DNA from: Bacteroidota bacterium
Lineage (GTDB): Bacteria; Bacteroidota; Ignavibacteria; Kryptoniales; JAKASW01
Assembly (NCBI GenBank): GCA_021818875.1
Contig: JAKASW010000003.1
Coordinates: 1 to 44,141 of the forward strand
DNA: 44,141 nt
Direction: 5' to 3'
This document shows positions 4,198-20,500 of the stretch, one piece after another; positions within the stretch are counted from its first letter, which is position 1, and each line of letters begins with the position of its first letter. A model generated the notes under the pieces. That model saw only the letters and a program-made list of their open reading frames with translations, searched no databases and had not been told where the DNA came from. The translations under genes and the position numbers were made by a program.

Positions 4198-4761
4198 TCA
4201 GCTCAGGTGTACCACGAAATGACAGGTCTTCCCGCCGCGCCTTAGAGTCTCGACGATTTCCGTCTTGAAAGGACGTCCCAGCGCTGTCTCGAAAATCGTT
4301 TGATGGGTCATCCGAGTGCACTCGCAGTGGATGTCGTTCGGTTTCGGCGGGATGTTTTGCGCCGCCGGACAGTAACAGAGCTTCGACACCTCTCCATACC
4401 TTATGTGAACCTCGTCGCCATCGCGCCACACTTCAAAGTTCTGCTTGTATGCATCGAGAAGCTTGGCGACATCGCCATGTCCCTTGGCAGCAATATCCTT
4501 CTTAAACTTGTGACGGTTGAAACACCCTACGCCGCATCCTTCAATCAGTTTTACTTTTGTCTCCTGGTTCAACCTCACGTCCATGGTATTTAGCAGATCT
4601 GTCAGCCAATTCACGATGAACTCCTTCTCGTTCTGCAGGCGCTCAAGTTTCTCATCCGTCGTAGTTGCGCTTGCTGCAAGGTTGTCGAGGTTGAGCGCCA
4701 GCAACGCACTTGAACAGAAACCGAGCTTTAGTGAAGTGCTGAGGAATTTCTTACGGTCCAT
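4198..4761 (-). CDS. Cys-rich protein with Tat-like signal (DUF6144 / V4R-ATC-hydrolase-like fold)
   Basis: N-terminus MDRKKFL...LAASA (RK variant of the twin-arginine motif). Cys clusters GCGVGC, CYCP, HCECT and C-terminal ETLRRGGKTCHF. AGGA RBS present. Confidence 0.7.
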   Translation of the reverse strand: MDRKKFLSTSLKLGFCSSALLALNLDNLAASATTTDEKLERLQNEKEFIVNWLTDLLNTMDVRLNQETKVKLIEGCGVGCFNRHKFKKDIAAKGHGDVAKLLDAYKQNFEVWRDGDEVHIRYGEVSKLCYCPAAQNIPPKPNDIHCECTRMTHQTIFETALGRPFKTEIVETLRRGGKTCHFVVHLS

Positions 4762-4802
4762 ATAGTTCCTTCCTTATAGTTTTTATCAACTTTGTCGCTC
4801 GC

Positions 4803-6095
4803 TCAATCCGCAAACTTCTCTATGCAAAGCCTGCTTACTCTCTTGGCCAATGCCATGATGGTGAGTATCGGCGGATTGCCGAGTGAATTGGGAAATAGAG
4901 TAGAATCTGCCACGTACATGTTTTGCGGGAGAATGTTGCTATGACATGTCTCCGCCTCGCTCGCGGTGAGAGGCAGCATTCCCCCGGGGTGGCCTCCGTT
5001 TACGGTCCCGAGGAACGTCTCTTCTGGTTTGACTCCTACATGACGAAAGATTTCTTTGGACAATATGACTCCCTCATCAAGTCTTTGCCGGTCAAGATTA
5101 CTTAGCCCCTTTGTGATTCCTCCGACGGCAATTTCCCCGCAGCTTGAGTCCGCAAGCTTGATCATCAGGCTGTAGATGTCCGGGGAAGGATATTTCCATT
5201 TCTTATTGAAAAAGAAACTCAGCAGGTCGAAATAGGGAGATAGCATAAAATGTTCTCTCTGAACTATGAAGGGCATGGGCATTTCGATATCCTGGTGTGA
5301 GTTCTCCCATTTTGCTGCAACGCACAAGACAGGATCGACGAACAGCTTCGGTTGGCACTTAATACCCGAGTTCTGCAATATGACCGGAGTTCCCAATCCC
5401 CCGGCCGTAATTACCACAAGGTCGGCAGGATAAAACTCCGTCCGAAAACCGCGTCTGGCAACCACTCCCTGTATCACTCCATTTGCGATCACCGCGTGGT
5501 GCACCTTGTGATTCGATAGCAGGTGCGCGCCTTTGCTCACCGCTTGCACCAGGAACTTCCGGGTATCCCATTTGGCTGCATGCTGGCAACCGAACACACA
5601 CCTGCCGCAGGCCGCACACCGATCGCCGTAGGCCATCTTCGGGGTGATCATCGGCTGAAGCTGCATATCACGACAAAGATCGAAAATTTGTCGGGTGTGC
5701 CTGGACCAATGCTTCCGATGCTCAAATGAAATTGGGACTTCGCGATACAGCTCTTCGAATTCTTTGTCGAGATCGATTCCAATCGCTTTCAAGTCGTGGT
5801 CCTGTCTCAATCCGTTGCCCGTACAAATTGTGGTCGTTCCACCTGCTCCAGCGCCGCGCACCAGGACCAACCCCTCATGCGATTTCCTAACCTTCATGTT
5901 CGGGTAGATCAATCCGACCATGCGTTCATCAAAAAGGAGTCCCGTCCTCTTTAGTTTCCCGACCGATGAGAGTTGCATCGTAAAGGGATGGAAACCTCCT
6001 CCTTCTTCGATGACAGTAACATTGAATTTCCCCTGCAGCTCTTTTGCAGCCGTGGCACCGCCTGCTCCGGCCCCGACAACTATCGCTTGTTTCAT
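4803..6095 (-). CDS. GMC-family FAD oxidoreductase with ferredoxin-type CxxCxxCxxxC motif
   Basis: VVGAGAGG Rossmann motif, GAGAGGTT, CAACGRCVFGC, AGGLGTPVILQNSGI, HPGG and NMYVADSTLFP..LGNPPILTIMALAKR (GMC C-terminus). Confidence 0.88.
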   Translation of the reverse strand: MKQAIVVGAGAGGATAAKELQGKFNVTVIEEGGGFHPFTMQLSSVGKLKRTGLLFDERMVGLIYPNMKVRKSHEGLVLVRGAGAGGTTTICTGNGLRQDHDLKAIGIDLDKEFEELYREVPISFEHRKHWSRHTRQIFDLCRDMQLQPMITPKMAYGDRCAACGRCVFGCQHAAKWDTRKFLVQAVSKGAHLLSNHKVHHAVIANGVIQGVVARRGFRTEFYPADLVVITAGGLGTPVILQNSGIKCQPKLFVDPVLCVAAKWENSHQDIEMPMPFIVQREHFMLSPYFDLLSFFFNKKWKYPSPDIYSLMIKLADSSCGEIAVGGITKGLSNLDRQRLDEGVILSKEIFRHVGVKPEETFLGTVNGGHPGGMLPLTASEAETCHSNILPQNMYVADSTLFPNSLGNPPILTIMALAKRVSRLCIEKFAD

Positions 6096-6634
6096 GTATC
6101 AGCTTCGATTGCAAGATGTGCCCGGCAACACGGATCTCCCTCGGTTATCCTGTTAATAAACCTCAGGTTGCTGCTTCCCGATACCCCCGCCAGGAAACCT
6201 ACATCAAAAGCCGAGATCAACCGACAAACGTGAGACGAATAGAACCGGCTGAAGTAACATCTCCTTATCAGTATCTCTCCGGCTGCTGTACCATAGAACT
6301 CGATCCCAAGGATTCCGTAAACGATTTTGCTCAGCGTCATGGCATGCTTCATATTTTTAACTCCGAAATCTCTTCGTGCTTTGCGCCCGATCTCGCTAGC
6401 GTTCTCATAGAGCCGACGCGCTACTTCCGTTTCACTTCCTAACCGTATTGCTTCCTCTCCTTTTGCGGCGGTGAACGCAGCGTATTTACTCAGGATCCCA
6501 TCTGCGTTCAGCAAATCAATCGACGGTACCTGCACTCCGAAGGAAACCGCGGTCGCATTAAAGATTTCTCGCAGCACCTTCCTGCGGATGAACTGCGGGA
6601 CATAAATCCGTCCAACGTTGAAGAGGAGATTCAT
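6092..6634 (-). CDS. L-2-amino-thiazoline-4-carboxylate hydrolase-like / V4R-fold Cys protein
   Basis: RCYF...VCRLISAFDVGFLAGV...RITEGDPCC pattern typical of ATC-hydrolase/V4R-like proteins. ATGA overlaps with both neighbours. Confidence 0.65.
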   Translation of the reverse strand: MNLLFNVGRIYVPQFIRRKVLREIFNATAVSFGVQVPSIDLLNADGILSKYAAFTAAKGEEAIRLGSETEVARRLYENASEIGRKARRDFGVKNMKHAMTLSKIVYGILGIEFYGTAAGEILIRRCYFSRFYSSHVCRLISAFDVGFLAGVSGSSNLRFINRITEGDPCCRAHLAIEADT

Positions 6635-7047
6635 AGCAAGTGCCTCTTCATTCTGCGATAGAACAGAAGAACAACGACGCCAATAATTCCATCCACTAAG
6701 AAGTTGGTTAAGTAAATCAGATATCGGGCAGCGGCGATAAACAAAATTATAGAGACTACCGAGGAGGCGACTTTGGCATTAATCAGGAGCAATGGGAAAG
6801 TTGTGTTATGCGGATGGTGGTACATCATGAAAGCAAGTAGTGTAACGAGATACATGTAAGCCACGGAGAGAATGAGATAGAAGCGGGCGCCAGCAAGCGG
6901 GGCCTCTGGCATCTGGACTGAGCCGGACATCGAATTGAAGAAGATCAGGACTGCGTCCGGCGCGAGTAAGAAAAGAAGCACTACTATCGCAAAAACAAAG
7001 GACAGTATGAGGGCGGTCAACCTGTAAAGACCCAAACGTCCGTCCAT
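6631..7047 (-). CDS. Hypothetical 4-TM membrane protein
   Basis: 138 aa with four hydrophobic helices. Starts 2 nt after the rSAM stop and overlaps the downstream ATG. Confidence 0.75.
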   Translation of the reverse strand: MDGRLGLYRLTALILSFVFAIVVLLFLLAPDAVLIFFNSMSGSVQMPEAPLAGARFYLILSVAYMYLVTLLAFMMYHHPHNTTFPLLLINAKVASSVVSIILFIAAARYLIYLTNFLVDGIIGVVVLLFYRRMKRHLL

Positions 7048-7049
7048 TT

Positions 7050-8282
7050 CTAGGCAACCATCTTTTTCGGATTCACAGCACGACTGATTTGGTTCGTACC
7101 ATAATATAGCTGAAAGAAGACAGATAATTCGCCGAATCGGACCTCGTCCATAAGCTTGATCGATTCAGCTTTCGGCAGAATTTTCCTGCCCTCAGAGTAT
7201 TTTCTTAATAGTCCGTAATTGCAGTTGATAAAACAGTGCGAGCCCGGTTGAAAATGCGACCTGATCTCGCTGAAAATCTGTCCGATGCCTTCCTCCCTGA
7301 CATTACCGAAATTCATCGGAGTAAACACGCATGGGCTCACATCGCCGAACGCATCCACGTAAATCATCTTGCGACCGGCGTTGCAGCCAAAACACTCTCT
7401 TCCCTCGAAATGACCAAGATAGTTGACGGTCATTTTTCCATCGGAGTTGTATCTATTCTGGAGGTGTACCAATTTCTGCCGGTCCTCTTCCGTAATGACT
7501 ATTCTACGATTCCAGAACGGCTCTATGGTCGGCTTAAGCTCGCTCAGCCAGGCTTCATGGACTCCAAGAGCTGCGATGAACTCAAGGAGTCTGTCCGTAT
7601 CGTCGCTCCTTATCATCTCCGGTGTCAGCACCGCAGAGATTCCGACATCCATCCCGGCCGTGTTCCTGAACATTTCCACTGCCCCGATCGCTTCATCGAA
7701 AGCATTCTTGTAGCCCCTCTGTTTGTTATGAACCTCAGGGTTCCAATGATCCAGGCTGACAGAGACCGAGAATAAACCTGCGTCTTTCAAGGCCGCGGCT
7801 AATTGTGGTGTCAGGCCACAACCGGTCGTGAATAGTTTCACGGCGCAGCCATTCGAAATTGTAGATATTATTTCCACGATGTCTTTATTGAGAAGAGGCT
7901 CGCCTCCGGTGACTCCGAGCCAGACCACACCCATATCCTTTAGTTCTCCCGCAACCCGAAGAATTGTTTCCTTGTTCATTAACCTGCCGGTCCTATCCTT
8001 ATTATAGCAGTATTCGCAATTTTGGGGACAGGCGTTAGTGATGGCAATCTGCGCATGAGAAGGACCCGACACTCTTTTGATCAAATGTTCTTCAACAAAC
8101 TTTGAGTATGCACGACTATTCAGCGGCGGAAGGTGAGAGTGGAGAATCAGATTTTGCCCGACTTTCCGCACACGAAACCTGTTCATATAGGAACACATGA
8201 ATTTCGTGATCGAAGGTTCGACAAAGGCCATCCGCGGATTCCGTAACAGCACCTTTAGCATCGTGGAGATATTTCTCATCAT
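7050..8282 (-). CDS. Radical SAM protein with SPASM/Twitch-type C-terminal domain
   Basis: CPQNCEYC (CxxxCxxC), TGGEPLL, VSVSLDH and C-terminal CFGCNAGRKMIYVDAFGDVSPCVF...FGNVRE...HCFINC. ATG shares a base with the TBDR stop (TGATG). Confidence 0.92.
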   Translation of the reverse strand: MMRNISTMLKVLLRNPRMAFVEPSITKFMCSYMNRFRVRKVGQNLILHSHLPPLNSRAYSKFVEEHLIKRVSGPSHAQIAITNACPQNCEYCYNKDRTGRLMNKETILRVAGELKDMGVVWLGVTGGEPLLNKDIVEIISTISNGCAVKLFTTGCGLTPQLAAALKDAGLFSVSVSLDHWNPEVHNKQRGYKNAFDEAIGAVEMFRNTAGMDVGISAVLTPEMIRSDDTDRLLEFIAALGVHEAWLSELKPTIEPFWNRRIVITEEDRQKLVHLQNRYNSDGKMTVNYLGHFEGRECFGCNAGRKMIYVDAFGDVSPCVFTPMNFGNVREEGIGQIFSEIRSHFQPGSHCFINCNYGLLRKYSEGRKILPKAESIKLMDEVRFGELSVFFQLYYGTNQISRAVNPKKMVA

Positions 8283-10771
8283 CAAAACTCCGCCTCGATT
8301 CCGGCGACTGGAAGCAGGGCAAACTGGTACACTGTCTCTCTCGTACCATCAGAGTTGTATTGATAGAAGGCAACGTTCTTCCGGTTGTAGATGTTTTGCA
8401 CCGACAACAGGATCACAAGGCTCCAGGCGCGGAAATTGTACCTGCTTGAGAACTCTATGTCAAGCCGGTGATAATCAGGATATCTCGCAGAATTGATGTT
8501 CGACGTCGTTTGCCACGAGCCTGCCGTCCAGGTGGATCCGCCGACCCGGTGTTGCACGTTCGTGGAGTAAACTTCCGGAGTGTAAGGCATGCCGGTTGCG
8601 TATCGCCATCTCAAACTGATCCCCATGTCATTCGAGAAAGGTAGTATATGGCTCGGATACTTTATGTAGAAGGGCATATCGTCAAGGCTGGAACGCAAAT
8701 TGGCGAACCGTTTTCCCGCGATCACGGTGAGCACGTAAGGCGTATCGTACCAGGATGGAAAAGTCCTTCCTTCCCACCCGATTCGCGGGTCGTAGTATTT
8801 AGAGAACATCCTGGAGAGACATATCGTCCCATAAAGATCTTTTACAAGTTTTTGCTGTACGAGAAAGTCAATCCCGTATACATCCTCTCTACCGGCGTTG
8901 ACAATTTGTGCTGACCTCGCGGTTTGATCGCTGAAGAGAATAAAGTTCTCTGAGATTGGAAGGCCGGAGTACTGTTTGTAGTAGCCTTCAATATTGATCT
9001 TCAATCCTTCAACGACAATATCCTCAACTCCAAGGACATAATGGTCCGCTACGCTGCTCGATAGATGCCTGTTGATCCCGGATTGGTATCTGTCCCCGAA
9101 ATCGGGGAGAGGAGGAGTCTGATAGTATTTCCCGAAAGCCATATTTGCTGTCAGGACATTAGGGACGATCGAATAGGAAGCAGATAATCGCGGGCTCAGG
9201 TTTCCTTTTCTGCTGTAAGAAAAGTAGTCATACCTGAGTCCGAGATTGAATACGAGCCGCCCGTCAAAGAGACTTACCTTATCGTTGACGTACGCATAGC
9301 CTTTGTAATAATCGGGAAAACCAAAGTCATAGTTGATGTTCGAAGCAGGTACAACTACTGTAGTATCGTATTCACCAAAATTATACCGAGTGGTGTCGGT
9401 ATCAGCTGATTCGAACGCCTTGAAGTTTATGAATTTCACAGCACCGCCAAGATCACACTGATTTATTCTGTCCACATTCCACATGAATTCAGACTTCAAA
9501 TCGGTTTCTCCCTCATTGTCATCCGCACCGTATATTTTTCTGGTGTTAAGGACGTTCGTGGAGCTTACCTTCCCGTCTCCGCCATAGATCCTCTGTGTGA
9601 ATTCTGAATTGACCAGGACGTTACTGTAATAATTGTTCTTCGAAAGCGTAACAACAGAAACGAGGTCGTCGGACCACCTGCTGTTCAGTGTTGCACCTGC
9701 CGCATACTGGTGCTGCCTGACGCTGACGTTGTAGACATCCACCAAATCGGACTTACCCGCAAGGGCGAGGTTGGTAACCTGTGGCTCGCCCGCAATGTTG
9801 ATTCTGTCGTTGCCGTATATTCCTGAGAGAGAAAACTTGTGATTCTCGGAGAGATCGTATACGGCTTTCCCCTGGAGATCATAGTATTTCGGAACTGCGG
9901 TGAGCCCGACCGCACCTGCAATCATGTCGATGTAACTGTTCCTTGCCGAGATAATCCACGATCCCTTCCCACCGTTCAGCCTGCCTTCCAGCACAGAGCC
10001 ATAGCCTGCCATCGACAGGTTTGCATTCCCGGACAGAAGTTTATCTCGCGTTCCATCTCTTGTCCTAATGTTTATGACCGACGATGACTTGTCGCCATAC
10101 TTGGAAATGAAACCGCCTGTCGAGAACTGCACATCCTGGATCAGATCGACATTCACTATGTTTATCGGGCCACCGGAATTATACTGGTTCGGATAGTGGT
10201 TTGTCGACTGGACTTCCATGTGATCGAGAGTTGTCAGGTTCTCATCCGGTGCCCCACCCCTCACCAGAAGTTCGTTCGTTTGATCAGTTGAGAAAGAGAC
10301 ACCCGGCATTCCTTGAAGTACTCGCTGATAGTCCATGTCGGATCCCGGAGATCTCCTGATCTCCTCCGATCCGAGGGCCACGGTACTTACAAAGTTCTCG
10401 ATCGAAGCTCTCTCGAAATAGTCCGGACTCACGGTCACCTGGTCAAGCTGCAGTGGCATCTCAGTCATCTTCACATTCACCGGGGTCTCGCTACCGGTTC
10501 TTACGATGATGTCTGTCTTCACAACGGGCTGATAACCGACCATGCTGATCCTGAGAGAGTAGCTCCCGACGGGTACAACTACTTTGAACCGCCCGTTGAA
10601 ATCGGTCATCGTCCCGGTATTCTTTAGCTCAACAACAACTGCGGTTGCCCCCACAAGCGGCTCCCCCATTTTCGAATCTGCGACTGATCCAGTGATCGTA
10701 CCGGTCTGTGAATATGCTTCCGAAAATAGAAGAGACAGCACTGCCAATGATCGTGCAATATTGCTCAGCAT
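8282..10771 (-). CDS. TonB-dependent outer-membrane receptor with N-terminal carboxypeptidase-regulatory-like domain
   Basis: Signal peptide, GTITGSVAD..GEPLVGAT..TDFNGRF domain, plug motifs MPGV / LLVRGG..DEN / GGFISKYGDKSSSVINI, LGLRYDYF, RYPDYHRLD, NIYNRKN, and C-terminal Phe. Confidence 0.93.
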   Translation of the reverse strand: MLSNIARSLAVLSLLFSEAYSQTGTITGSVADSKMGEPLVGATAVVVELKNTGTMTDFNGRFKVVVPVGSYSLRISMVGYQPVVKTDIIVRTGSETPVNVKMTEMPLQLDQVTVSPDYFERASIENFVSTVALGSEEIRRSPGSDMDYQRVLQGMPGVSFSTDQTNELLVRGGAPDENLTTLDHMEVQSTNHYPNQYNSGGPINIVNVDLIQDVQFSTGGFISKYGDKSSSVINIRTRDGTRDKLLSGNANLSMAGYGSVLEGRLNGGKGSWIISARNSYIDMIAGAVGLTAVPKYYDLQGKAVYDLSENHKFSLSGIYGNDRINIAGEPQVTNLALAGKSDLVDVYNVSVRQHQYAAGATLNSRWSDDLVSVVTLSKNNYYSNVLVNSEFTQRIYGGDGKVSSTNVLNTRKIYGADDNEGETDLKSEFMWNVDRINQCDLGGAVKFINFKAFESADTDTTRYNFGEYDTTVVVPASNINYDFGFPDYYKGYAYVNDKVSLFDGRLVFNLGLRYDYFSYSRKGNLSPRLSASYSIVPNVLTANMAFGKYYQTPPLPDFGDRYQSGINRHLSSSVADHYVLGVEDIVVEGLKINIEGYYKQYSGLPISENFILFSDQTARSAQIVNAGREDVYGIDFLVQQKLVKDLYGTICLSRMFSKYYDPRIGWEGRTFPSWYDTPYVLTVIAGKRFANLRSSLDDMPFYIKYPSHILPFSNDMGISLRWRYATGMPYTPEVYSTNVQHRVGGSTWTAGSWQTTSNINSARYPDYHRLDIEFSSRYNFRAWSLVILLSVQNIYNRKNVAFYQYNSDGTRETVYQFALLPVAGIEAEF

Positions 10772-10867
10772 TTCTACAACTTTCTTCTATTGATTTAGGT
10801 GCGGAGAGGAATCTCTGGTCAAAAGACGCCTGTTTCGTCTGCTTTTCGATGGACGAATCAGAAGAAT

Positions 10868-10895
10868 AATACGGAACAGTTTACAAAAGGTTCCC
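10868..10895 (-). promoter_or_regulatory. Putative ECF sigma-factor promoter upstream of the TBDR operon
   Basis: Minus strand reads GGGAAC-cttttgtaaactgttc(16 nt)-CGTATT, matching the AAC-N16-CGT ECF consensus, about 100 nt upstream of the ATG at 10771. Confidence 0.55.
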
Positions 10896-11076: not shown

Positions 11077-14000
11077 CTACCGCAGAAGCATCATCTTCTT
11101 AACTGCCCTGTAATTGCCAGCCTGAAAGAGGCAAAGATAAACCCCCGATGCCGACTCCGTTCCATTGTTGTCTCTCCCGTTCCATTGGACGGTGTAGCTG
11201 CCGGGAGCCTGACCCGCATCCACCAGCGTTGCCACTTTTCGACCAAGTATATCGTAAATGTTCACCTTAACCCATTCGCTCCGTGGGAGATCGTACTCTA
11301 TCGTGGTAGATGGGTTAAACGGATTCGGATAATTCTGACTAAGATAAAACCCTTTCGGCACCTTTGAACTTATATCAACTATTCCGGTCACCTCGGTAAC
11401 TACTGCTCTTATCATAAGAGACACAGGGATTGAATAATCAGAGCTGTCAAACTGGTACCATGTGGAATCGCCAGCAATATAAGCCCACGCCCTATTGTTC
11501 CAAACAGTATCTATACCGACACGCGGCTCATCTTTGCCGTCGTATTTGATCCCAACGAAGAAATCGTTGCTTGAAGTTGTTGAAAGGCTGATGTCTTGAG
11601 ATGAAACATCAACTGTGTTCCACCCAAGTGCAGACTTAAGAAGCGGCCCGGTAAAGATGGGACTGGCGGCGGGCACATCAGGCGCCGACGGACTACTGGT
11701 ATACACGACGGGGCAGAAATGAGAAGTGTCTTCTTGCGTCACATTATCTCCGAGTATGTAATATAGAAGACTACTTATCGTTACTGATCTTGTGGGTGCA
11801 GTTAACCTATTCGCAAAGACGTCGCCTGCCGCATTTGTGTACAAATACGCCGCGTACATACCGCCATCATACGATAACAGGTCTCCGCTTGAATTTAAAT
11901 ATTTGCCGCTGCTGAATACGCCGCTCCCGTGTGTCGCTACTACGACTTTACCGTCTGTGTCTCTGCTTATTACCATCTCGCAAACAACATTCCCGATCGT
12001 GCCTGCCCCTTCCTGAGCCCAAACTGTCGAAGTCCCGTTCAACTGCGTTGTGGAGTACAAGCCGGTGGTGGTTGCAACATAATAGAAGGTTGTCCCTCCA
12101 TAGTTTAGTATCGATGCCCAGAGGCAGGCCGGACCATCACCCGATCCATCAGGGTATTGTTCCAGGTTGCCGGCTACGTCTTTCCAGCTGTTGCCTCCGT
12201 CGGTGGTATAATACAGGCTTATCACACCGTAGTTCGAATATACCAGCATCGCGTTGTTTGCATTATCCGGATCGACAGCGATGCAACTCACGTAGGCACT
12301 GTCGGGAAGTCCCTTATTGGACCATACATCGACCGGCATAGGATTACCTGTGTTGGCACTGTCTACACGATACACTTTGCCTGACGCTGTCCCGAAGTAC
12401 AGTATGTTTGCCGGCGTCGTGGATATGCCGAGCGCGGTTATCGGGTCATTGGCAACTGCCGTATTGCTCATCAATGTCCAAGTGACAGAAAGTGAAGAAT
12501 CGTTCCAATCCGGTATCGAACTCAGGGCGTTGTCGCGCCAGATGCTGTCCCCTGCAGCAAAATACATGATGTTGTTGTTATTAGGATCAAGTACATAAGG
12601 AGCAAAGAATAGAAAGTCGGTACCCCCTGCGGGGGTAATCTTTGTAATAGTTAAATTGGTGCCCTCGTTATTCAAAGTGACTCTCCATAGTGATCCGTTC
12701 TGATATTCCACATAATAGAATTTCTTGCCGTTGGCTATATCTGCGTAGCCCCCGTCATCCGAAGGCTGATTTAATATATTCCAGTATGTTGGAGCATCGG
12801 CAGAATTGAAGAAAAGGTCGCCCCAATCTTGTAGGCCTCCGATTACGACATTGTCCCCATTTGCGGATTGATCCATTGCCACACTATAAAATTGCGAAGT
12901 GACATAACCGTTGTTCAAACTTGTCCATGTGACCGGCGTTGAGGTGATGTCATCTGTTTTGTATATCCCTCCGTCATTGCCGACAATGACATGGTCGGAA
13001 TTTGAAGGGAGAAAAACCAGGGTCTGTTGGTCAGGATGCTGGTCGGGATAAAAGCTGTAATTACTGTTCGTGGGAGAAAAGCCTCCGATCCAATCCGAAG
13101 TACCGATGGGGGTTGCAAAACCGTCAGTAGATCTATAAAGATTCGTCCCTCCTATAATCACAAAATTTGGATTATCAGGTTTCACTTTGATTAACATGTC
13201 GTAACCCTGTTGAGCGTCGTAATCACCGCTTTGCCCTCCAAGTGCAGGAATATTAGAAGATCTGTCCTCCCAGGCTCCCCCACTGCCCGCACCATCTCCG
13301 GAAACATAAGTATATTTCCATAGACTGAATCCGTCAGTGCTAAGTCCCTGATATAAATATGCTCCTGGAGTCGGTAGTATCTTGCCTGCTCCGGGCGTCT
13401 CGGCTAAAAAGTAAACTTCGTCTTCGTCCGAAGGCGCTGCCGCAAGCACAATTCTATGGTAAACCTTTGGCCAGCCTGACGGAGTTATATTGACAAAACT
13501 TCCTGCATCTCCTGTCGTCGACCTCCATATACCCGGATCTTTGCCTGCATTACTGCTCAACACTGCATATACAACTCCCGTTGGAGTCACTTCTACATCA
13601 GTCCAAATAACCTGTGATAAGGGTACACCCATATAGCTCGACGCGCTTGGGGCTGTTGTATCTCCCAAAACTAAATTCCAGGTTGAGCCTCCGTCTGTAG
13701 ACTTCATGATTCCCCCGAAAACTGCTGCATAAACTACATCCTCAGAAAAGTTCGAGGGGTCGACTGCAATATCGTAAACAAATTGAAATGCATTGCTAAA
13801 GACCTGAGGAGTGTTGACTTCCGTGGAAATCAACGGCTGCCAACTTTGTCCATCATCGGTCGATTTGAAGATGCCATTCCCTGTTATGCCGGCGCTGTTA
13901 CCGAATATTTCGCCCGTTCCATAGTAGAAAACGTTCGTATGTCCGGGCCGTACATCCTGAGCAACGCAAGAAACGCTTTGTAATTGCTCTGCCCCTGTGG

Positions 14001-14424
14001 TCTTTTGCCAGGTTAGTCCTCCATCCGAAGACCGCCACATGCCACCAGACACGCCGCCGGCAAGAACCACGCTCTCGTTGGACACATCCACGGCTATGGC
14101 TCTTGTTCTCCCGCCTATATTTGTCGGGCCCAGAGGTGTCCATGACGTGCTTTGAACCTCTTCATAACCGTTTTTGATAGGAGACTTCCCCGCTACGGGA
14201 AGCGTTTTTGCATATTGTAATTCAAGATTTCCAATGTTATTAGGAATCTGTCCCGTCTTTGGGTCCCGAAGCCTCATGAACTCGTATCTCCATCGGGACG
14301 AGGCATCTTCACTGTTTCTTCTGATGATCTCGTTTCCGCCTGCCAGCTGTTGCGGCGTTGCCATTTTACTTGCCGCTAAGATCACTGCCGCCGAAAGGGA
14401 CAGTGTCTTAAATAGGTCCTTCAT
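11077..14424 (-). CDS. T9SS-secreted BNR/Asp-box beta-propeller protein (VPS10/GH74-like) with FlgD-Ig / T9SS type A sorting domain
   Basis: Signal peptide, WTPLGPTNIGGRTRAIAVD, multiple Asp-boxes (SSDGGLTW, STDDGQSW, STDGGSTW, TTDGGNSW), HPDQQ, VATHGSGVF, and C-terminal LSQNYPNPFNPSTTIEYDLP...WNGRD...SGVYL...KKMMLLR. Confidence 0.88.
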   Translation of the reverse strand: MKDLFKTLSLSAAVILAASKMATPQQLAGGNEIIRRNSEDASSRWRYEFMRLRDPKTGQIPNNIGNLELQYAKTLPVAGKSPIKNGYEEVQSTSWTPLGPTNIGGRTRAIAVDVSNESVVLAGGVSGGMWRSSDGGLTWQKTTGAEQLQSVSCVAQDVRPGHTNVFYYGTGEIFGNSAGITGNGIFKSTDDGQSWQPLISTEVNTPQVFSNAFQFVYDIAVDPSNFSEDVVYAAVFGGIMKSTDGGSTWNLVLGDTTAPSASSYMGVPLSQVIWTDVEVTPTGVVYAVLSSNAGKDPGIWRSTTGDAGSFVNITPSGWPKVYHRIVLAAAPSDEDEVYFLAETPGAGKILPTPGAYLYQGLSTDGFSLWKYTYVSGDGAGSGGAWEDRSSNIPALGGQSGDYDAQQGYDMLIKVKPDNPNFVIIGGTNLYRSTDGFATPIGTSDWIGGFSPTNSNYSFYPDQHPDQQTLVFLPSNSDHVIVGNDGGIYKTDDITSTPVTWTSLNNGYVTSQFYSVAMDQSANGDNVVIGGLQDWGDLFFNSADAPTYWNILNQPSDDGGYADIANGKKFYYVEYQNGSLWRVTLNNEGTNLTITKITPAGGTDFLFFAPYVLDPNNNNIMYFAAGDSIWRDNALSSIPDWNDSSLSVTWTLMSNTAVANDPITALGISTTPANILYFGTASGKVYRVDSANTGNPMPVDVWSNKGLPDSAYVSCIAVDPDNANNAMLVYSNYGVISLYYTTDGGNSWKDVAGNLEQYPDGSGDGPACLWASILNYGGTTFYYVATTTGLYSTTQLNGTSTVWAQEGAGTIGNVVCEMVISRDTDGKVVVATHGSGVFSSGKYLNSSGDLLSYDGGMYAAYLYTNAAGDVFANRLTAPTRSVTISSLLYYILGDNVTQEDTSHFCPVVYTSSPSAPDVPAASPIFTGPLLKSALGWNTVDVSSQDISLSTTSSNDFFVGIKYDGKDEPRVGIDTVWNNRAWAYIAGDSTWYQFDSSDYSIPVSLMIRAVVTEVTGIVDISSKVPKGFYLSQNYPNPFNPSTTIEYDLPRSEWVKVNIYDILGRKVATLVDAGQAPGSYTVQWNGRDNNGTESASGVYLCLFQAGNYRAVKKMMLLR

Positions 14425-14445: not shown

Positions 14446-15048
14446 TCAATGATGAACTGTCTGTGCGGGTGGAATTGGATCATGCACCATGTTATGAACA
14501 GGGCGTATGCTTCTTAGATAGGCATAGATGTCGCGTAAGTCGTTATTAGACATTCGACCGATTTCCTGCCATGGCATCGGTGGCAAAAGCGGGCGACCGC
14601 TTCCCCAGTATTGGCCTTTCCGCATGGCGTCAACGAATGTTTTCTCTGTCCAATCACCTATCCCAGTAGCACTATCGGGAGTCAAATTTGCGGCAAAACT
14701 AACTCCCCAAGGACCGGCGAAAATTGTTCCATCACCGGTACCCAGGAATCCCCACCCATTTGGCCCCAGTGTACCTTTCGGTATCTCAGGAACCTTCTCG
14801 TCTGCCGGGGCCCCGGATAACATCCTCTTGAAATCTGGCACCGGACCTTTTGGAGTCATTATTCTGGGTGTGTGGCAATCATTACACCCTCCGATAGTGT
14901 TCACCAGGTATGCTCCCCTCTGTATCTCGGCTCTGGTAAAGTGGTTCGCTGACCGACTACCTTTTTCCTTCGGCAAAACAAACGCCACGAGAAACGCAAC
15001 GCTCACAAACATACCTAGCATGATCGATAAGAGTTTCATTTGGGTCAT
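14446..15048 (-). CDS. Mono-heme c-type cytochrome (c-553-like; resembles one module of ADH/GADH cytochrome subunits)
   Basis: N-terminal TM/signal, RGAYLV..GGCNDCHTP (CxxCH), GPWGVSFAANLTPD..TGIGDW, PPMPW (likely distal Met) and DLRDIYAYLRS. Confidence 0.88.
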   Translation of the reverse strand: MTQMKLLSIMLGMFVSVAFLVAFVLPKEKGSRSANHFTRAEIQRGAYLVNTIGGCNDCHTPRIMTPKGPVPDFKRMLSGAPADEKVPEIPKGTLGPNGWGFLGTGDGTIFAGPWGVSFAANLTPDSATGIGDWTEKTFVDAMRKGQYWGSGRPLLPPMPWQEIGRMSNNDLRDIYAYLRSIRPVHNMVHDPIPPAQTVHH

Positions 15049-15100
15049 CCTTCTTTTCTTTATGTGTGGTGGATCAAGGAGATTGTTACGATGCCACTCA

Positions 15101-15688
15101 TCAAATGCCCGTAGCGAGATGGGCCATCACAAAGATGATGGCTATCTGCATCACGCCTTGTATAGCGGTGATTCTGACATAATTCTTCATGAGTCTTTGT
15201 ATCTTCCGCCCGTCGGGATTTTCTTTTCTCAGCTCGAAATAAACGCGCAGGTTGGTGGGGAGTAGAAACCCGATGCCCTGTATTGCAAGAACCAGTAGGA
15301 TGAAGTATACGGAGATCATCCACCAGTAGTGCGGAAAACCTGCGTTGAGGTAGCCCAGCATCGATGCAAGAGCGAACCCTGCAGTCGGAGTAATTATGGC
15401 AAGAGTCGGCATATAAAATACCATCTTGGGCATCAACCTCGTGATGAGGTTCTTCCGCGATTGCAGATCAAGTTTTCGCATGATGGGACCCAGAACGAAT
15501 CCCATGAAGAGATCAGTACCGGTCCAAAGTAGACCGGCAAGTACGTGTATGAAATTGATCATCCGGAAGTCACGTAACTCTACGACTGAAATCGTCACGG
15601 CAATTGCGAGAAGAGCCCATATGACGTTACGCATTCTGATTTGTGGCTGCTCGGCCACCGTGCCGGAGACAGCTGCTTCGATACTCAT
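15101..15688 (-). CDS. Hypothetical inner-membrane protein (5 TM; CopD/DUF2269-like His-bearing helical bundle)
   Basis: 195 aa with five hydrophobic segments. FIHVLAGLLWTG resembles the HxxxxxxWxG motif of CopD/DUF2269/DUF4149-type proteins. GAGGAG RBS. Confidence 0.65.
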   Translation of the reverse strand: MSIEAAVSGTVAEQPQIRMRNVIWALLAIAVTISVVELRDFRMINFIHVLAGLLWTGTDLFMGFVLGPIMRKLDLQSRKNLITRLMPKMVFYMPTLAIITPTAGFALASMLGYLNAGFPHYWWMISVYFILLVLAIQGIGFLLPTNLRVYFELRKENPDGRKIQRLMKNYVRITAIQGVMQIAIIFVMAHLATGI

Positions 15689-16674: not shown

Positions 16675-17304
16675 TCAGGCGGGCTTGTTTCGTCTGCCCC
16701 GCGACAGCAGCTCGTATCGGCTGTTAACATGCAGCTTTTCGTACACATGCCTGACATGAGCCCTGACGGTATCGATGCTGACAAAGAGTCTTTCAGCGAT
16801 TTCCCTGTACCTATACCCCTGGCAAAGAAGTGAGAGGATTTCTCTTTCTCTCTCCGTCAGTTCAGATTGCTCGTCACTACTCGGGCTCTGAAACGCCTCA
16901 ACCACTTTTCGAGCGATACTTGGCGACATCGGAGATCCGCCGTTGTACAGTTCCTTGATAGCAGAGATAAGCCTTTCCGGCGGAGTGTCCTTCAGAATGT
17001 AGCCGCTTGCGCCGGCTTTTAGAGATTCGAAAATTCTTTCGTCGTCTTCGTAAACCGTCAGCATCATGATCAGGATTTCGGGGATTCTCGCTTTTACCTG
17101 CCTTGCTAAGTCGATCCCCGACTGGCCGGGAAGTCCGATGTCCACCAGGATAACGTCAGCGTTCAGAGGACCGATTCTCTGTAATGCCGATTCAGCGTCA
17201 GCGAACTTCGCAACGCAGATTAAGTCGTTGCCTCTTTCCATCAGGGCTGCGATTCCCTCACGGACAGTTTCTACGTCTTCGATTATGGCCGCTCGAATTG
17301 GCAT
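16675..17304 (-). CDS. NarL/LuxR-family DNA-binding response regulator
   Basis: REC domain (IIED, LVDIGLPGQSG, MLTVYED, GASGYILKD) plus LuxR HTH (LTEREREIL..G..YREIAERLFVSIDTVRAHVRHVYEKLHV). Confidence 0.95.
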   Translation of the reverse strand: MPIRAAIIEDVETVREGIAALMERGNDLICVAKFADAESALQRIGPLNADVILVDIGLPGQSGIDLARQVKARIPEILIMMLTVYEDDERIFESLKAGASGYILKDTPPERLISAIKELYNGGSPMSPSIARKVVEAFQSPSSDEQSELTEREREILSLLCQGYRYREIAERLFVSIDTVRAHVRHVYEKLHVNSRYELLSRGRRNKPA

Positions 17305-17346
17305 CGGTTCTTGCTGACAACTAATTAAGAGACTTGGCGGACATTG

Positions 17347-17368
17347 GCAATCGCATGATAATGTGATT
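17347..17368. promoter_or_regulatory. Palindromic operator, copy 2 (upstream of the response regulator; likely autoregulatory)
   Basis: GCAATCGCATGATAATGTGATT in the 72-nt gap between kinase and regulator. Confidence 0.75.
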
Positions 17369-17376
17369 AATCAAGA

Positions 17377-20300
17377 TTAATTCGTAGCCAGCTTTGACAT
17401 TGGGACGACTATGACTACCTTTGTACCCTTGCCGTGGAGTGATTCAATCTTGCAGGTACCGCCGATTTCGGTTGCACGGTCGCACATGTTCCGTAATCCG
17501 TGTCGCAGGTTATGGCCGTTTTCAAAGCCGTTCCCGTCGTCGGATAGCCACATCTCCATATTTTCTTCCGGAAAACCAAATCCGATTTCAAGAGTATGGC
17601 AGTCGGAATGTTTAACTGCATTTGCGAGAGCTTCTTTGAAGATCAGGAGCAAATCCCTTCTAACTACCGAGGACATTTTCATTTCGGGGATATCACCAGG
17701 GGTCTTCCAGCGAATGCTGATATTGATATTCTCAAGATATCGATGAGCGTATTCGTGGAGATATGCGACGAAATGATCGAGAGAGTCATGCTGAGGATTT
17801 ATCGACCATACTATCTCTGAGAGTTTGTCGACAAGCGACCGCGCCAACTCCGCAACCTGACCGATCTGTCCTGATGTCACAGCGGGAACTTCCGCATCCT
17901 GTCGCGAGAGTTCGCTGAGGATGGCGATCTCAGTCAGACCGGCGCCAATCTCATCATGTATATCCCGCGAGAATCTGGTTCGCTCCTTGTCCAGTATGTC
18001 GCGCTCCAACTGGACGACAAGAAGTCGTTTCTTAAACTTCCGGACAGACGCCGCCCTTACAGTTGACACCAAGACACCCAAACAGAAAATGCCCGCGGCC
18101 AACTTAAACCAAAGGGTATCCCAGAAAGGCGGAGGGACAATAATTGCAAGGGAAGCGCCCTTCTGCTCAGGAATCCCGTCAGGGCTTACTGCTCTAACTA
18201 TGAACACATAGCTGCCCGGGGACAGGTGAGTATATTGAATTGATCTTTGGTATTTGAATTTGATCCATGATTGGTCGACACCTACAAGTTTCCCATCGTA
18301 TGTAATTTCGCCCGGGTCGGTCCAGTATGGCGCTATGAAATGAATTGACAGAGTCAGGTTGGAAGAGCTGATTTCCAAAGTATCCACCGGATATCGAACA
18401 ACATATTCACTGTCAGGAAGGGTGACAGTGACAGACTGGATAATACAATGAGGAGCTTGTGTCGGAGTCCACACTTCTGCCGGATCAATGGCGGTCACTC
18501 CATCATTGCCGCCGAAGTAGAGTACGCCATCGGAGCTTTTGAAATAAGCTCCACGATTGAATTCCAGGTTCGCAAGCCATTCGGGATGATTGTAGATACG
18601 AACTTGCGGCGACAGGCTGGTGAGGCTGCTCACGCGCACAATTCCACGATTTGTACTGCACCAGAGGTTCCCGTATTGGTCCGCCAGAACCCCGAAGACA
18701 TTGCTTGATAAGGATTCCGTCAGTGCTCCGATGAAATCGACTTCCCTTCTTGGGTAATCGAGGCGGAAAAGGCCATGGCCTGTCCCAAGATAATAAATCT
18801 GTCCTCCAACTTTTTCCAAAGACCAGACTACGGTTGTCCTGCCGTTCGTTGCCTGGAGAAATCTTTCTGTGGCACCTGATTTCCTGTTAAACCGGAGCAA
18901 TCCGTTCGCGGTTCCGAACCAAATCACACTATCACCCTCGAAACTTATGGATCTTACCTGTTCGTTGGGTTGAAACTTTTTGTAAAGCTTGTACCCCTTA
19001 GTGATGTCCGTTGCGAAGAATTTACCGGTATAAGTCGCACCCCAGAGCCGTCCTGAGTCGTCAGTTGCAAATGCGGTCACAGTATTTAATCCGGGGACAG
19101 AAGTTTGCGGGCCGAAGTAGAAGCTCCTAAAAAGATGTTTCCTCCTATTAACTAAAACGTCAAGACCATCATCTGTGCCTAACCAAACCCGATCGTCACC
19201 ATCAACGCCTGTTGCCCAGATCACGTCGCTGCTCAGGCCAGTTGCCGTACCATCCATCTTCTCCACCAGGTTCGTCGATTTGCCTGAAATGCCGTCATAC
19301 TCATATAAACCTTTACCGTATGTACCGATCCAGAACTTACCTTCTTTGTCCCGGGCTATCGAAAGTACCATCACGTCGGACCGTTCACCTTCGTGCGTGA
19401 GAGTTATGTTATCAAACCCTTTTTGGAAGGGATCATATTCGTATACCCCCCAGATTGTTCCTGCCCAGACAATGCCTTGAGGACCGACACAAATTGAAAA
19501 GACTAGGTCCGCCGCTGACGCCTGTCGTGGCACATCGATCATGGCCTTCTGACATACACTCGTCGCAGGATTATATCTGTAGATATTCTGTCGTGTTGCT
19601 ATCCATACTACTCCGCCCGGGGAAACGCCGTGGCCTACGACATTCTGATGAGCCAGCAGTGATAATGATGCCATCGGTTTTTCCAGAGCAGAACTCCCCG
19701 GATGCCACTCAAACGTACCTTTGTACACATTCAGCAGGTAGGTGGCGGGTCCGATTCGAAAACCCGACAAAAGCTTATGCGAGTGAATTGGAACCGGAGT
19801 ATCTTTTTCCCATACTCTTCCCATCGGTGGAAAGCTGTATATGTTGCCGTCGTTTCCGAAGAGCCAGAAAGTCCCTGTTCTGTCTGCCCAAATGCTCTGC
19901 GGCACGACTGGCAGCCTGATGGCCCCCCGCCGATCGAACATCTTTGCCTGATAGTTATAGCTCTCGAGAAAATGCTTGGTGGCACACCAGACGTTCTTTT
20001 GTCGGTCTTCTAAGATCTCTCCGGGGCATTTGACCCTTAGAATCGTGCTCCTGTTCGGGCTCAGAACTGCCCAGCCCATTGACGTATGAACCCACAACCA
20101 TCCGTGTGAGTCCTCAAAAATACGTCGGACAGTGTTGGAGGGAAGTGAGTTGCTGTCTGTCAGGCTGGCTTTGAACAGCTTCATCTCCTTACCATCCCAC
20201 TCACCGACTCCTTCCAGCGTTCCTAGCCACAGCATCCTCCGATGATCAACGGCTATCGAATAAACAAAATTCTGAGGCAGGAATCTATTAGGGAAAGCGT

Positions 20301-20394
20301 GTTGGAACTTCGGAGGTGCGGACCGTCCATAGGCAAATCCGTCTACGAAGAGATATATGACTGCAAGAAGTAAAAGTCTGGCACTTCTCCTCAT
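17377..20394 (-). CDS. Sensor histidine kinase with periplasmic Reg_prop beta-propellers, Y_Y_Y domain and HisKA_3/HATPase
   Basis: Repeats SLPSNTV, WIGTYGKGL, LSSDVI and WCSTNRGI; EFNRGA..LYFGGNDG; YTHLSPGSYVFIVRA; PPFWDTLWF TM; RFSRDIHDEIGAGLT; KEALANAVKHS, DDGNGF, GLRNM, GKGT. GGAG RBS favours ATG 20394. Confidence 0.93.
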   Translation of the reverse strand: MRRSARLLLLAVIYLFVDGFAYGRSAPPKFQHAFPNRFLPQNFVYSIAVDHRRMLWLGTLEGVGEWDGKEMKLFKASLTDSNSLPSNTVRRIFEDSHGWLWVHTSMGWAVLSPNRSTILRVKCPGEILEDRQKNVWCATKHFLESYNYQAKMFDRRGAIRLPVVPQSIWADRTGTFWLFGNDGNIYSFPPMGRVWEKDTPVPIHSHKLLSGFRIGPATYLLNVYKGTFEWHPGSSALEKPMASLSLLAHQNVVGHGVSPGGVVWIATRQNIYRYNPATSVCQKAMIDVPRQASAADLVFSICVGPQGIVWAGTIWGVYEYDPFQKGFDNITLTHEGERSDVMVLSIARDKEGKFWIGTYGKGLYEYDGISGKSTNLVEKMDGTATGLSSDVIWATGVDGDDRVWLGTDDGLDVLVNRRKHLFRSFYFGPQTSVPGLNTVTAFATDDSGRLWGATYTGKFFATDITKGYKLYKKFQPNEQVRSISFEGDSVIWFGTANGLLRFNRKSGATERFLQATNGRTTVVWSLEKVGGQIYYLGTGHGLFRLDYPRREVDFIGALTESLSSNVFGVLADQYGNLWCSTNRGIVRVSSLTSLSPQVRIYNHPEWLANLEFNRGAYFKSSDGVLYFGGNDGVTAIDPAEVWTPTQAPHCIIQSVTVTLPDSEYVVRYPVDTLEISSSNLTLSIHFIAPYWTDPGEITYDGKLVGVDQSWIKFKYQRSIQYTHLSPGSYVFIVRAVSPDGIPEQKGASLAIIVPPPFWDTLWFKLAAGIFCLGVLVSTVRAASVRKFKKRLLVVQLERDILDKERTRFSRDIHDEIGAGLTEIAILSELSRQDAEVPAVTSGQIGQVAELARSLVDKLSEIVWSINPQHDSLDHFVAYLHEYAHRYLENINISIRWKTPGDIPEMKMSSVVRRDLLLIFKEALANAVKHSDCHTLEIGFGFPEENMEMWLSDDGNGFENGHNLRHGLRNMCDRATEIGGTCKIESLHGKGTKVVIVVPMSKLATN

Positions 20395-20500
20395 GATCAA
20401 GCTCCGTATGGGTTGATGCTAAGGCGCTCTCGGAAAAATTTAACGGACCCGAGTCGAACTACAAATTAAATTAACAGTCCAACACAATTGGTACTCCCGA

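Follow-up and report, generated by a model that had tools for sequence, protein, structure and literature searches.

What does a run of six minus-strand genes do in a contig of the Bacteroidota order Kryptoniales (JAKASW010000003.1 of assembly GCA_021818875.1), whose full 44,141 nucleotides (nt) we refer to as the window? The genes encode a TonB-dependent receptor (TBDR), a radical SAM enzyme, a small protein with four hydrophobic helices (TM4), a protein with the V4R/ATC-hydrolase fold, a GMC-family Fe-S flavoprotein, and a Cys-rich protein with a Tat-like N-terminus. An original prediction, made from the letters of the window, treated all six as one operon that imports an external, possibly lipid- or sterol-like, molecule and transforms it at the membrane. 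We found all six open reading frames (ORFs) in the window, and we conclude that four of them, encoding the radical SAM, TM4, V4R-like and GMC proteins, very probably constitute a functional module.

We scanned one genome per species with two conserved radical SAM peptides. This yielded 162 stretches, 154 of which were confirmed relatives; the best 80 of the 154, with up to 10 kb of flanking sequence on each side where the contig allowed, form our locus set, and genes were counted in it by tblastn with the six window proteins. The radical SAM gene was present in all 80 loci, the TM4 gene in 79, the V4R-like gene in 80 and the GMC gene in 76, with the order fixed and all genes on a single strand. 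The four loci without a GMC match (L020, L021, L059 and L063) end inside or just past the V4R-like gene, and the one locus without TM4 (L079) has a deletion that also takes the C-terminus of the radical SAM enzyme. By contrast, the TBDR was found in 7 of the 80 loci and the Cys-rich protein, which weakly resembles DUF6144, in 3, all within the window's own clade. Clustering of all 3,630 ORFs of at least 80 aa from these loci revealed no family besides the core four in more than 14 loci; the commonest, antisense shadows aside, were response regulators (14/80), DUF3795 proteins, ABC ATPases (9/80) and the TBDR. The nearest neighbours were heterogeneous on both sides: by Pfam, the nearest upstream genes of 69 loci included Plug six times and Amino_oxidase four times, and among the nearest downstream genes of 68 loci PFK occurred four times and every other family at most twice. 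No peptidase or exporter was conserved beside the module in the 80 loci. The combination of heterogeneous neighbours and a fixed gene order indicates that the conserved unit is these four genes and that it is self-contained, and the data show that they are inherited, and also transferred, together.

The original prediction had named as support for a module the co-occurrence of these four genes across phyla, with the TBDR restricted to diderms, and this is the pattern that we observed: homologues are not scattered, synteny is conserved across the locus set, and the TBDR is confined to one diderm clade. The six-gene operon, on the other hand, does not survive as a unit, with the TBDR and the Tat-like protein lying outside the core. 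Given the rarity of these two genes, the label of an import-and-transform pathway fits at most this Kryptoniota lineage, since most carriers have no linked transporter.

Carriers of the module fall under about eleven phylum labels, which are the submitters' own and imperfect. Clostridia carriers are many, among them Dehalobacter, Ca. Formimonas warabiya DCMF, Syntrophomonadaceae and Dethiobacter; the remainder are Kryptoniota, metagenome-assembled genomes (MAGs) labelled Bacteroidetes, Dehalococcoidia and other Chloroflexota, Aminicenantes, KSB1, Calditrichota, Ignavibacteriota, Spirochaetota, Coprothermobacterota and one member of the Thermoleophilia. Radical SAM relatives number in the hundreds, and the best 120 are 57–69% identical to the window protein and carry generic source names only. 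Across phyla, identity is ~52–69% for the radical SAM enzyme and 50–65% for the GMC flavoprotein. Within the window's genus, a strong radical SAM orthologue occurs in 14 of 24 other genomes, and five same-genus genomes have a more distant version (52–55% identical); none of 16 genomes from the rest of the same order and class has the module. In a FastTree phylogeny of 81 radical SAM sequences, the window belongs to a clade of 10 rows (support 99) whose sister group is Chloroflexota (support 97). Elsewhere the tree, a quick and effectively unrooted one, mixes phyla and requires 17 label changes where 9 would be the fewest possible. The mixing fits horizontal movement of the whole module, which would make it a mobile unit among anaerobes. 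An in-frame TGA in the radical SAM gene of five same-genus genomes was considered as a selenocysteine codon and rejected; translations of L069, L061, L089 and L090 give an unbroken ORF that ends at its natural TGA, a stop that the genome search had run past. A same-genus genome without the module (G014:C35:28496-28666) contains a 57-residue fragment with two TGA codons that is 53% identical to residues 49–105 of the radical SAM enzyme, and this may be the remnant of a lost copy. Public sequencing runs that contain the stretch are DNA runs only, labelled mine drainage, mine tailings and sediment.

Natural fusion proteins link three of the four products physically. TM4 has four hydrophobic stretches and the invariant residues Y64-M65-Y66, K92, N115 and D119, and neither it nor the 180-aa V4R-like protein of the window matched any Pfam or NCBIfam model. 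An HMMER scan of 1.84 billion representatives returned 389 TM4 relatives, 64 of them at E ≤1e-30. Among these proteins are fusions of 549–557 aa in which the radical SAM enzyme lies ahead of the first helix (P0130, P0131 and P0016), and fusions of 313–332 aa in which the V4R-like domain follows the fourth helix (P0132–P0136, P0143 and P0164). The fusion junctions differ, indicating independent fusion events, and together the fusions show that the three proteins occur joined in the order radical SAM–TM4–V4R. With four helices, both TM4 termini lie on the same side of the membrane, and an Fe-S enzyme that uses SAM must be cytoplasmic, which places the complex on the cytoplasmic face. We consider it likely that the four proteins form one membrane complex, and we propose that TM4 is its anchor or scaffold. 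The membrane location given in the original prediction is backed by both types of fusion.

More distant TM4 relatives (E 1e-21 to 1e-14) are proteins of ~300 aa with an additional domain. This domain matched Gluconate_2-dh3 in 2 of 21 cases and had no PDB match; a V4R-like identity for it was rejected (hhalign probability 1%). In one protein (P0260) a TM4-like domain runs into the start of an FAD (flavin adenine dinucleotide) Rossmann fold, in another (P0206) a TM4 relative is fused to DUF362, and a structure match in the ESM Atlas identified a cluster of 798-aa GMC oxidoreductases that contains a TM4-like four-helix domain. These are leads towards a TM4 family that recurs as a membrane anchor for GMC-type dehydrogenases. 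A sister family of TM4 (P0206, P0228, P0242, P0260 and P0272) is found joined to a domain of ~170 aa, to the FAD domains of GMC proteins or to DUF362. This hints at membrane-anchored flavoprotein dehydrogenases as a broader class, so far unstudied, in Actinomycetota, Myxococcota and Thermodesulfobacteriota.

The radical SAM enzyme matched Pfam Radical_SAM (PF04055, E 5e-24), SPASM (2e-07, residues 301–339 only) and Fer4_12, and its cluster motif C86-x3-C90-x2-C93 is invariant in 18 of 18 sequences, placing it in the radical SAM superfamily. The only invariant Cys downstream are those of C301-x12-G-x4-C319 and C351, with C147 and C156 upstream of them. The CxxCx5Cx3C part of the seven-Cys SPASM pattern is missing, so the enzyme is Twitch-type rather than full SPASM, and it probably carries a single Twitch-type auxiliary cluster. 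The SPASM/Twitch assignment of the original prediction is therefore sound as regards the radical SAM domain and its Twitch-like extension, and does not extend to a full SPASM domain. Ahead of the catalytic domain is a conserved N-terminal extension of 75 residues with an invariant HSHLPP; the N-terminal segments of 10 homologues gave 0 of 10 Pfam matches at E values up to 10, a chance dDENN hit (0.24) aside. The closest solved relatives by PDB profile are SkfB (E 1.2e-16), MoaA, PqqE and BlsE (7vob, E 6.4e-11), with Tes distant. Although the enzyme matched 72 NCBIfam families, none of the 25 listed came near its cut-off: the scores in bits were 89.3 against 400 for GeoRSP, the best, 80.8 against 381 for PqqE, 83 against 500 for NirJ2, 80.2 against 500 for AhbD, 78.6 against 231 for MoaA, 71.4 against 265 for MftC (TIGR03962) and 46.7 against 450 for the lipid-modifying enzyme Tes. 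The enzyme thus lies outside the characterised haem, pyrroloquinoline quinone (PQQ), anSME-like and mycofactocin subgroups, and the module as a whole matches none of the mycofactocin, PQQ, haem d1/Ahb, MoaA, sactipeptide maturase or Tes systems.

The GMC protein matched Pfam GMC_oxred_N (PF00732, E 1.2e-14), with GMC_oxred_C not detected, and contains a CxxCxxCxxxC motif (C160, C163, C166 and C170) that is invariant in 34 of 34 homologues; the earlier description of this protein as an Fe-S GMC oxidoreductase is correct on both counts. Its AlphaFold model (pLDDT 90.3) most closely resembled, by Foldseek, the large subunit of Gluconobacter fructose dehydrogenase (7w2j, 8jej) and the alpha subunit of Burkholderia (B. 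cepacia) FAD-dependent glucose dehydrogenase (FAD-GDH; 6a2u, 8grj), at E 3e-23 to 4e-20 and TMq 0.72–0.76, followed by pyranose oxidases, alcohol oxidase, C-glycoside oxidases and cholesterol oxidase (1coy, 1b4v; TMq 0.76). The stretch with the Cys motif lines up with the Cys-rich segment of FAD-GDH alpha, the 3Fe-4S site of that subunit. His369 (34/34) and Asn407 (27/34) occupy the positions of the cholesterol oxidase catalytic pair, and the C-terminal HPGG and D-x4-P-x3-G-x-N-P segments align with HPLGG and GVNP of that enzyme. The FAD domain, the fold, and the His and His/Asn pair all place the protein in the GMC family, and we conclude that it keeps the FAD site, the four-Cys motif and the residues for alcohol oxidation. 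Cholesterol oxidase oxidises the hydroxyl of a membrane lipid; unlike the core GMC protein, it is secreted, uses O2, and has neither an Fe-S cluster nor partner proteins.

The AlphaFold model of the V4R-like protein, built from 35 homologues, had a pLDDT of 93, and its top Foldseek matches were PoxR, the V4R protein MJ1460, Bet3, MopR and H-NOX (probability 0.97–1.0, TM 0.4–0.54, E at least 2.5e-3). The modelled structure confirms the V4R/H-NOX-like, ATC-like fold that had been predicted, and 26 of the 35 homologues gave a weak match to Pfam ATC_hydrolase; the protein of the window gave none. Proteins with the V4R fold usually take hydrophobic ligands, and the fold is common to phenol-binding PoxR/MopR, acyl-binding Bet3 and haem-binding H-NOX. 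We propose from the model that the V4R-like protein would likewise bind a small hydrophobic ligand. It shares its fold with the V4R/ATC-hydrolase superfamily (PoxR/MopR, MJ1460, BchJ-type proteins, Bet3 and H-NOX), from which it differs in being a stand-alone protein with no DNA-binding or ATPase domain, locked in synteny with TM4 and at times fused to it. C126, C137, E165, C169 and C170 are conserved, C170 invariantly; a Cys/Glu zinc site probably lies at the corresponding place in MopR.

Our favoured reading, whose odds we put at about even, is a self-contained, horizontally mobile membrane complex. Its reactions would be the oxidation of a CH-OH group and radical C-H chemistry, acting on a membrane-resident substrate that is hydrophobic or amphipathic. 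TM4 would hold the radical SAM enzyme at its N-terminal end and the V4R-like protein at its C-terminal end, as in the natural fusions. The V4R-like pocket would hold a membrane-resident alcohol such as an isoprenoid, a polyprenol, a glycolipid or a sterol-like molecule. By homology, the GMC flavoprotein would oxidise the CH-OH group, passing a hydride to FAD with the help of the conserved His/Asn pair, and would relay the electrons through its four-Cys Fe-S cluster, as in the catalytic subunits of fructose and glucose dehydrogenases. The radical SAM enzyme would abstract a hydrogen from the same molecule with a 5'-deoxyadenosyl radical, and its auxiliary cluster would deal with the second electron. 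In the Kryptoniota clade, where the module lies behind a SusC-like TBDR and a plausible ECF-type (extracytoplasmic function) promoter with the DUF6144-like protein nearby, the substrate might be supplied or supplemented from outside.

That the substrate is lipid-like is a more tentative step. No further gene is conserved with the module, so the substrate should be something that most carriers have or meet. In 4 of 69 loci the next gene upstream encodes a flavoprotein of the CrtI/CrtD/carotenoid-isomerase family (of these, three were checked by NCBIfam, all under the cut-offs), 4 of the 80 loci contain a TetR regulator, and 4 of 37 TM4 homologues have weak TLC-domain matches; these are faint pointers to a lipid or isoprenoid. 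Several observations weigh against our proposal. Each of the three pointers covers only ~5–10% of loci or homologues, and no lipid-biosynthesis gene is conserved beside the module in the 80 loci. The closest solved relatives of the GMC protein act on soluble sugars (fructose, glucose and pyranoses) besides cholesterol, the closest of the radical SAM enzyme is the peptide-modifying SkfB, and the V4R-like protein may use its conserved Cys for a metal cluster, or have them modified, instead of forming a structural site with them. For a connection between TM4 and GMC proteins there is structural likeness and one truncated fusion, the Gluconate_2-dh3 match in distant TM4 relatives is weak, and L079 lacks both TM4 and the radical SAM C-terminus. 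(In this locus, from one MAG, the radical SAM match ends at residue 318 [L079:10001-11377]; it may be a decaying copy or an assembly error.) With the nearest GMC relatives oxidising sugars and cholesterol alike, the lipid- or sterol-like molecule of the original prediction stays an inference.

In a narrower form of the proposal, which we consider unlikely, the Fe-S flavoprotein is wired to the radical SAM enzyme instead of to a cytochrome, and the complex modifies, independently of O2, some widespread membrane lipid such as an isoprenoid or polyprenol alcohol. Electrons from the CH-OH group would then be exchanged with the radical SAM clusters through the four-Cys cluster of the flavoprotein, with the pair held on the TM4 scaffold together with a V4R-fold substrate carrier.

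The rival that survives best, although we think it improbable, is oxidation of a sugar, polyol or glycoside. A GMC enzyme of the fructose/glucose dehydrogenase type would be anchored by TM4 and would pass electrons to the membrane, the radical SAM enzyme would be a BtrN-like dehydrogenase or a BlsE-like sugar modifier, and the V4R-like protein would sense or present the soluble substrate. The structural neighbours of the GMC protein argue for this, including pyranose 2-oxidases and C-glycoside oxidases, as do the alignment with the Cys-rich segment of FAD-GDH alpha, the match of the radical SAM enzyme to sugar-modifying BlsE, the domain matching Gluconate_2-dh3 in 2 of 21 distant TM4 relatives, and the SusC-like TBDR. 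The catalytic subunits of fructose and glucose dehydrogenases are, like the core protein, GMC FAD enzymes, their Cys-rich Fe-S site occupies the same place, and both systems are membrane-associated, the module presumably so. The core GMC protein nevertheless differs from them in its four-Cys CxxCxxCxxxC motif and in being ~100 residues shorter, and the module has a radical SAM enzyme, a TM4 anchor and a V4R-fold protein as partners in place of a multihaem cytochrome c and a Tat-signal Gluconate_2-dh3 small subunit. No Gluconate_2-dh3 match or CxxCH motif was found in the six window proteins and neither gene is conserved in the 80 loci; of the three-subunit fructose/FAD-glucose dehydrogenase, an alpha-like subunit with its Cys motif is what is present. 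SusD, sugar transporters and sugar kinases are likewise not conserved, and the hydrophobic ligands typical of the V4R fold fit a soluble sugar poorly. Sugar dehydrogenases of this type are periplasmic, whereas the topology implied by the fusions is cytoplasmic, and the carriers of the module are anaerobes.

A protein- or peptide-derived cofactor, by analogy with mycofactocin or with the maturation of quinohemoprotein amine dehydrogenase, is lower still in our estimation. The target of the radical SAM enzyme, cross-linked or oxidised at Cys or at other residues, would be the V4R-like protein or a peptide that escaped recognition, and the GMC protein would process or re-oxidise the product. The thioether-forming activity of SkfB is in keeping with this, as are the invariant C170 beside C169 near the C-terminus of the V4R-like protein and the best NCBIfam match of the GMC protein, the mycofactocin-system MftG type (TIGR04542, E 1e-10). 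The mycofactocin system has the same pairing as the module, a radical SAM enzyme of the SPASM/Twitch group (MftC) with an electron-passing GMC flavoprotein (MftG), and MftG couples a cofactor derived from radical SAM chemistry to respiration, according to PMC11778925. The scores, however, are far under the cut-offs, at 41.2 against 400 bits for TIGR04542 and 22.7 against 387 for TIGR03970 in addition to that for MftC, and the module has no MftA-like peptide, MftB/RRE (RiPP recognition element), MftD, MftE or MftF. MftG is also not known to have an Fe-S motif. A conserved precursor peptide was rejected, since no conserved ORF of 15–90 aa lies within 1.2 kb of the core in the 80 loci. The absence of such an ORF, of any PqqD or RRE match in the 10 N-terminal segments, and of a conserved peptidase or exporter makes a RiPP, a peptide made on the ribosome and modified after translation, unlikely, as the original prediction had held. 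The Cys/Glu pattern of the V4R-like protein, moreover, resembles the structural Zn site of MopR/PoxR.

The least probable of the three alternative substrates, in our view, is a tetrapyrrole (haem, bilin or corrinoid) that is salvaged or modified, with the V4R-like protein carrying the macrocycle, the radical SAM enzyme acting in the manner of NirJ or AhbD, and the TBDR importing the compound. Weak NCBIfam matches of the radical SAM enzyme to NirJ2, AhbD, NirJ and AhbC (E 1e-23 to 1e-15) agree with this, as does the fold that the V4R-like protein has in common with haem-binding H-NOX, and corrinoid-protein genes occur within 10 kb in 7 of 80 loci (one scored by NCBIfam). PMC10151467 describes pairs of V4R proteins that, with an Fe-S protein, accompany bilin-biosynthesis genes. 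Set against these points, the family scores are as far under their cut-offs as given above and are no better than those for PqqE and MoaA, genes for haem or cobamide biosynthesis are not conserved in the neighbourhood, and there is no obvious tetrapyrrole substrate for an alcohol-oxidising GMC enzyme. A riboswitch in the TBDR leader was also ruled out, with an Rfam search of the leader returning no credible element, cobalamin or otherwise, and the TBDR itself is SusC-like. Finally, that the six genes are a chance adjacency, or a local operon with no conserved function, would account for the TBDR and the DUF6144-like protein not being conserved with the core, and has next to no probability because it is already contradicted for the core itself by the single gene order across loci and phylum labels and by the fusions.

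The arrangement of the genes in the window is given in Table 1. The TBDR stop codon (TGA, 8284-8282) shares a base with the ATG of the radical SAM gene (8282-8280), giving TGATG, and this ATG agrees with a 410-aa database copy (P0001). The radical SAM stop (TAG, 7052-7050) is followed by a 2-nt gap and then by the TM4 ATG at 7047, the next two junctions are 4-nt overlaps (6631-6634 and 6092-6095), and the ATG of the sixth gene follows a 41-nt gap that holds the purine-rich AAGGAAGGAA. All of these junctions are as originally described.

Table 1. Positions of the six genes and of the candidate promoter in the window (aa, amino acids).
Feature	Coordinates	Strand	Description
TonB-dependent receptor (TBDR) ORF	8282-10771	minus	829 aa; SusC-like; signal peptide, CarboxypepD_reg and Plug
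Radical SAM ORF (core gene 1)	7050-8282 from ATG, or 7050-8285 from TTG	minus	410 aa from ATG
TM4 ORF (core gene 2)	6631-7047	minus	138 aa; four hydrophobic helices
V4R/ATC-hydrolase-fold protein ORF (core gene 3)	6092-6634	minus	180 aa
GMC-family Fe-S flavoprotein ORF (core gene 4)	4803-6095	minus	430 aa
Tat-like Cys protein ORF	4198-4761	minus	187 aa; N-terminus DRKKFL; 8 Cys; weak DUF6144 match
ECF-sigma-like promoter motif GGAAC-N16-CGT	10871-10894	minus	~100 nt upstream of the TBDR start

The TBDR and the DUF6144-like protein are lineage-specific additions, not core genes. The receptor is probably a SusC-like TBDR: it matched Pfam CarbopepD_reg (E 1.6e-16) and Plug (E 2.3e-06), and its residues 9–259 matched the SusC homologue 5t3r_D in the PDB (E 2.6e-11). 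There was no Pfam match to a barrel domain, although the length of the protein fits a 22-strand barrel, and no SusD-like gene adjoins it. A TBDR lies beside the module in 4 of 7 same-genus loci. The window's DUF6144-like protein scored 18.3 bits (E 0.0024) and the L009 copy 27.1 bits against PF19641, both under the cut-off of 28.8. Copies 74–75% identical to it were found in L009, L010 and L012 only, among the 80 loci, and in these three relatives the gene lies 248–754 nt from the GMC gene, compared with 41 nt in the window. The ESM Atlas groups the protein among DUF6144/MetOD1 clusters, with DUF6144 in 11–65% of members. Its identity as a paralogue of the V4R-like protein was rejected (hhalign probability 0.07%), the only lead being an Atlas ATC_hydrolase match at 0.86.

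The promoter claim of the original prediction stands in part. The pattern GGAAC-N16-CGT occurs 3 times in the window where chance predicts 2.78, and is therefore not significant by itself. However, six or seven relatives that bear the TBDR have a TGTAAC(C/A)-N16-CCGTA box ~60–80 nt ahead of the TBDR start, and this similar box makes an ECF-type promoter before the TBDR plausible. Together with the translational coupling of the TBDR, such a promoter suggests that this clade takes up an external supply of substrate. Most relatives also have a GTCAGG element ~10–15 nt past the -10-like CCGTA upstream of the TBDR (L009, L010, L013–L016 and L079); it is not obvious in the window between 10771 and 10960.

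Other neighbours recur in some loci. DUF3795 proteins, which are Cys-rich and ~150 aa long, occur near the module in 9 loci by BLAST and in 13 of 80 by jackhmmer, within 10 kb and in at least three phyla (L012–L016, L019, L071, L080, L082 and others). In Kryptoniota loci the DUF3795 gene lies just upstream of the TBDR, and no copy adjoins the operon in the window. A same-strand gene for the CrtI/CrtD/carotenoid-isomerase-family flavoprotein precedes the module in some Clostridia and in one KSB1 locus (L048, L060, L084 and L054). In Ca. Formimonas warabiya DCMF (L048:7785-14019) the order is TetR, CrtI-like, radical SAM, TM4, V4R-like, GMC and DUF1697, and the DUF1697 gene overlaps the GMC stop codon.

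Directly upstream of the promoter region of the window operon is a gene for a 1115-aa secreted protein (11077-14424, minus strand) with a Por_Secre_tail type IX secretion sorting domain, an FlgD-Ig domain and a weak sortilin/BNR-like region. Beyond it, at 14446-15688 on the minus strand, a 200-aa c-type cytochrome adjoins a 195-aa DUF2269 membrane protein, a possible pair unrelated to the module. Further along the same strand (16675-21583) are a LuxR-type response regulator, a 1007-aa Reg_prop/Y_Y_Y histidine kinase and an agmatine deiminase (PAD_porph). A protein of ~360 aa whose gene is upstream of the TBDR in each of five related loci (cluster 24) resembles this agmatine deiminase, which indicates lineage synteny.

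Lipid-modifying radical SAM enzymes have been reviewed (Tes, Mss, Gms, GrsA/B, Gmm, Cds, HpnH/J/P/R, Jaw5 and the ladderane enzymes; PMC13459092, 2026). These enzymes carry out radical C-H chemistry on membrane lipids or their head groups, with SPASM-type auxiliary clusters in several of them. A term search of the review found none of GMC, FAD and flavoprotein (V4R was not searched there), and thus it names no flavoprotein partner. RefSeq and UniRef names for the proteins of strain DCMF (WP_148132716 to WP_148132719) are generic: 'radical SAM/SPASM domain-containing protein', 'hypothetical protein' for TM4, 'hypothetical protein' or 'ATC hydrolase' for the V4R-like protein, and 'GMC family oxidoreductase N-terminal domain-containing protein' or 'Choline dehydrogenase' for the GMC protein. 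Searches of NCBIfam, source names and the literature assigned no function to the module, and a full-text literature search, with subscription journals and supplements outside its coverage, found no description of the gene set, in line with the original statement that no pathway of this composition had been described. We rate the module as an Fe-S GMC dehydrogenase assembly with unprecedented partners.

The carriers include uncultured anaerobes that dominate in sediments, aquifers and digesters (Aminicenantes, Dehalococcoidia, KSB1, Kryptoniota and Clostridia), and the module is experimentally tractable through named organisms: Ca. Formimonas warabiya DCMF, the Dehalobacter sp. 4CP genome and the Dethiobacter alkaliphilus MAG. 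If the module does modify a membrane lipid or polyprenol independently of O2, this would be a new type of reaction for radical SAM lipid chemistry and the first case in which an Fe-S GMC dehydrogenase has a radical SAM enzyme as its partner. If, in addition, the flavoprotein is wired to the radical SAM clusters, the product would be a lipid structure, possibly a sedimentary biomarker, whose genes are unknown. Even if the substrate is a sugar or a cofactor, a function would be gained for four families at once: a radical SAM subgroup, an unnamed 4-TM family, an ATC-hydrolase-like subgroup and a short Fe-S GMC subgroup. The four-gene set probably marks an unstudied membrane-bound pathway.

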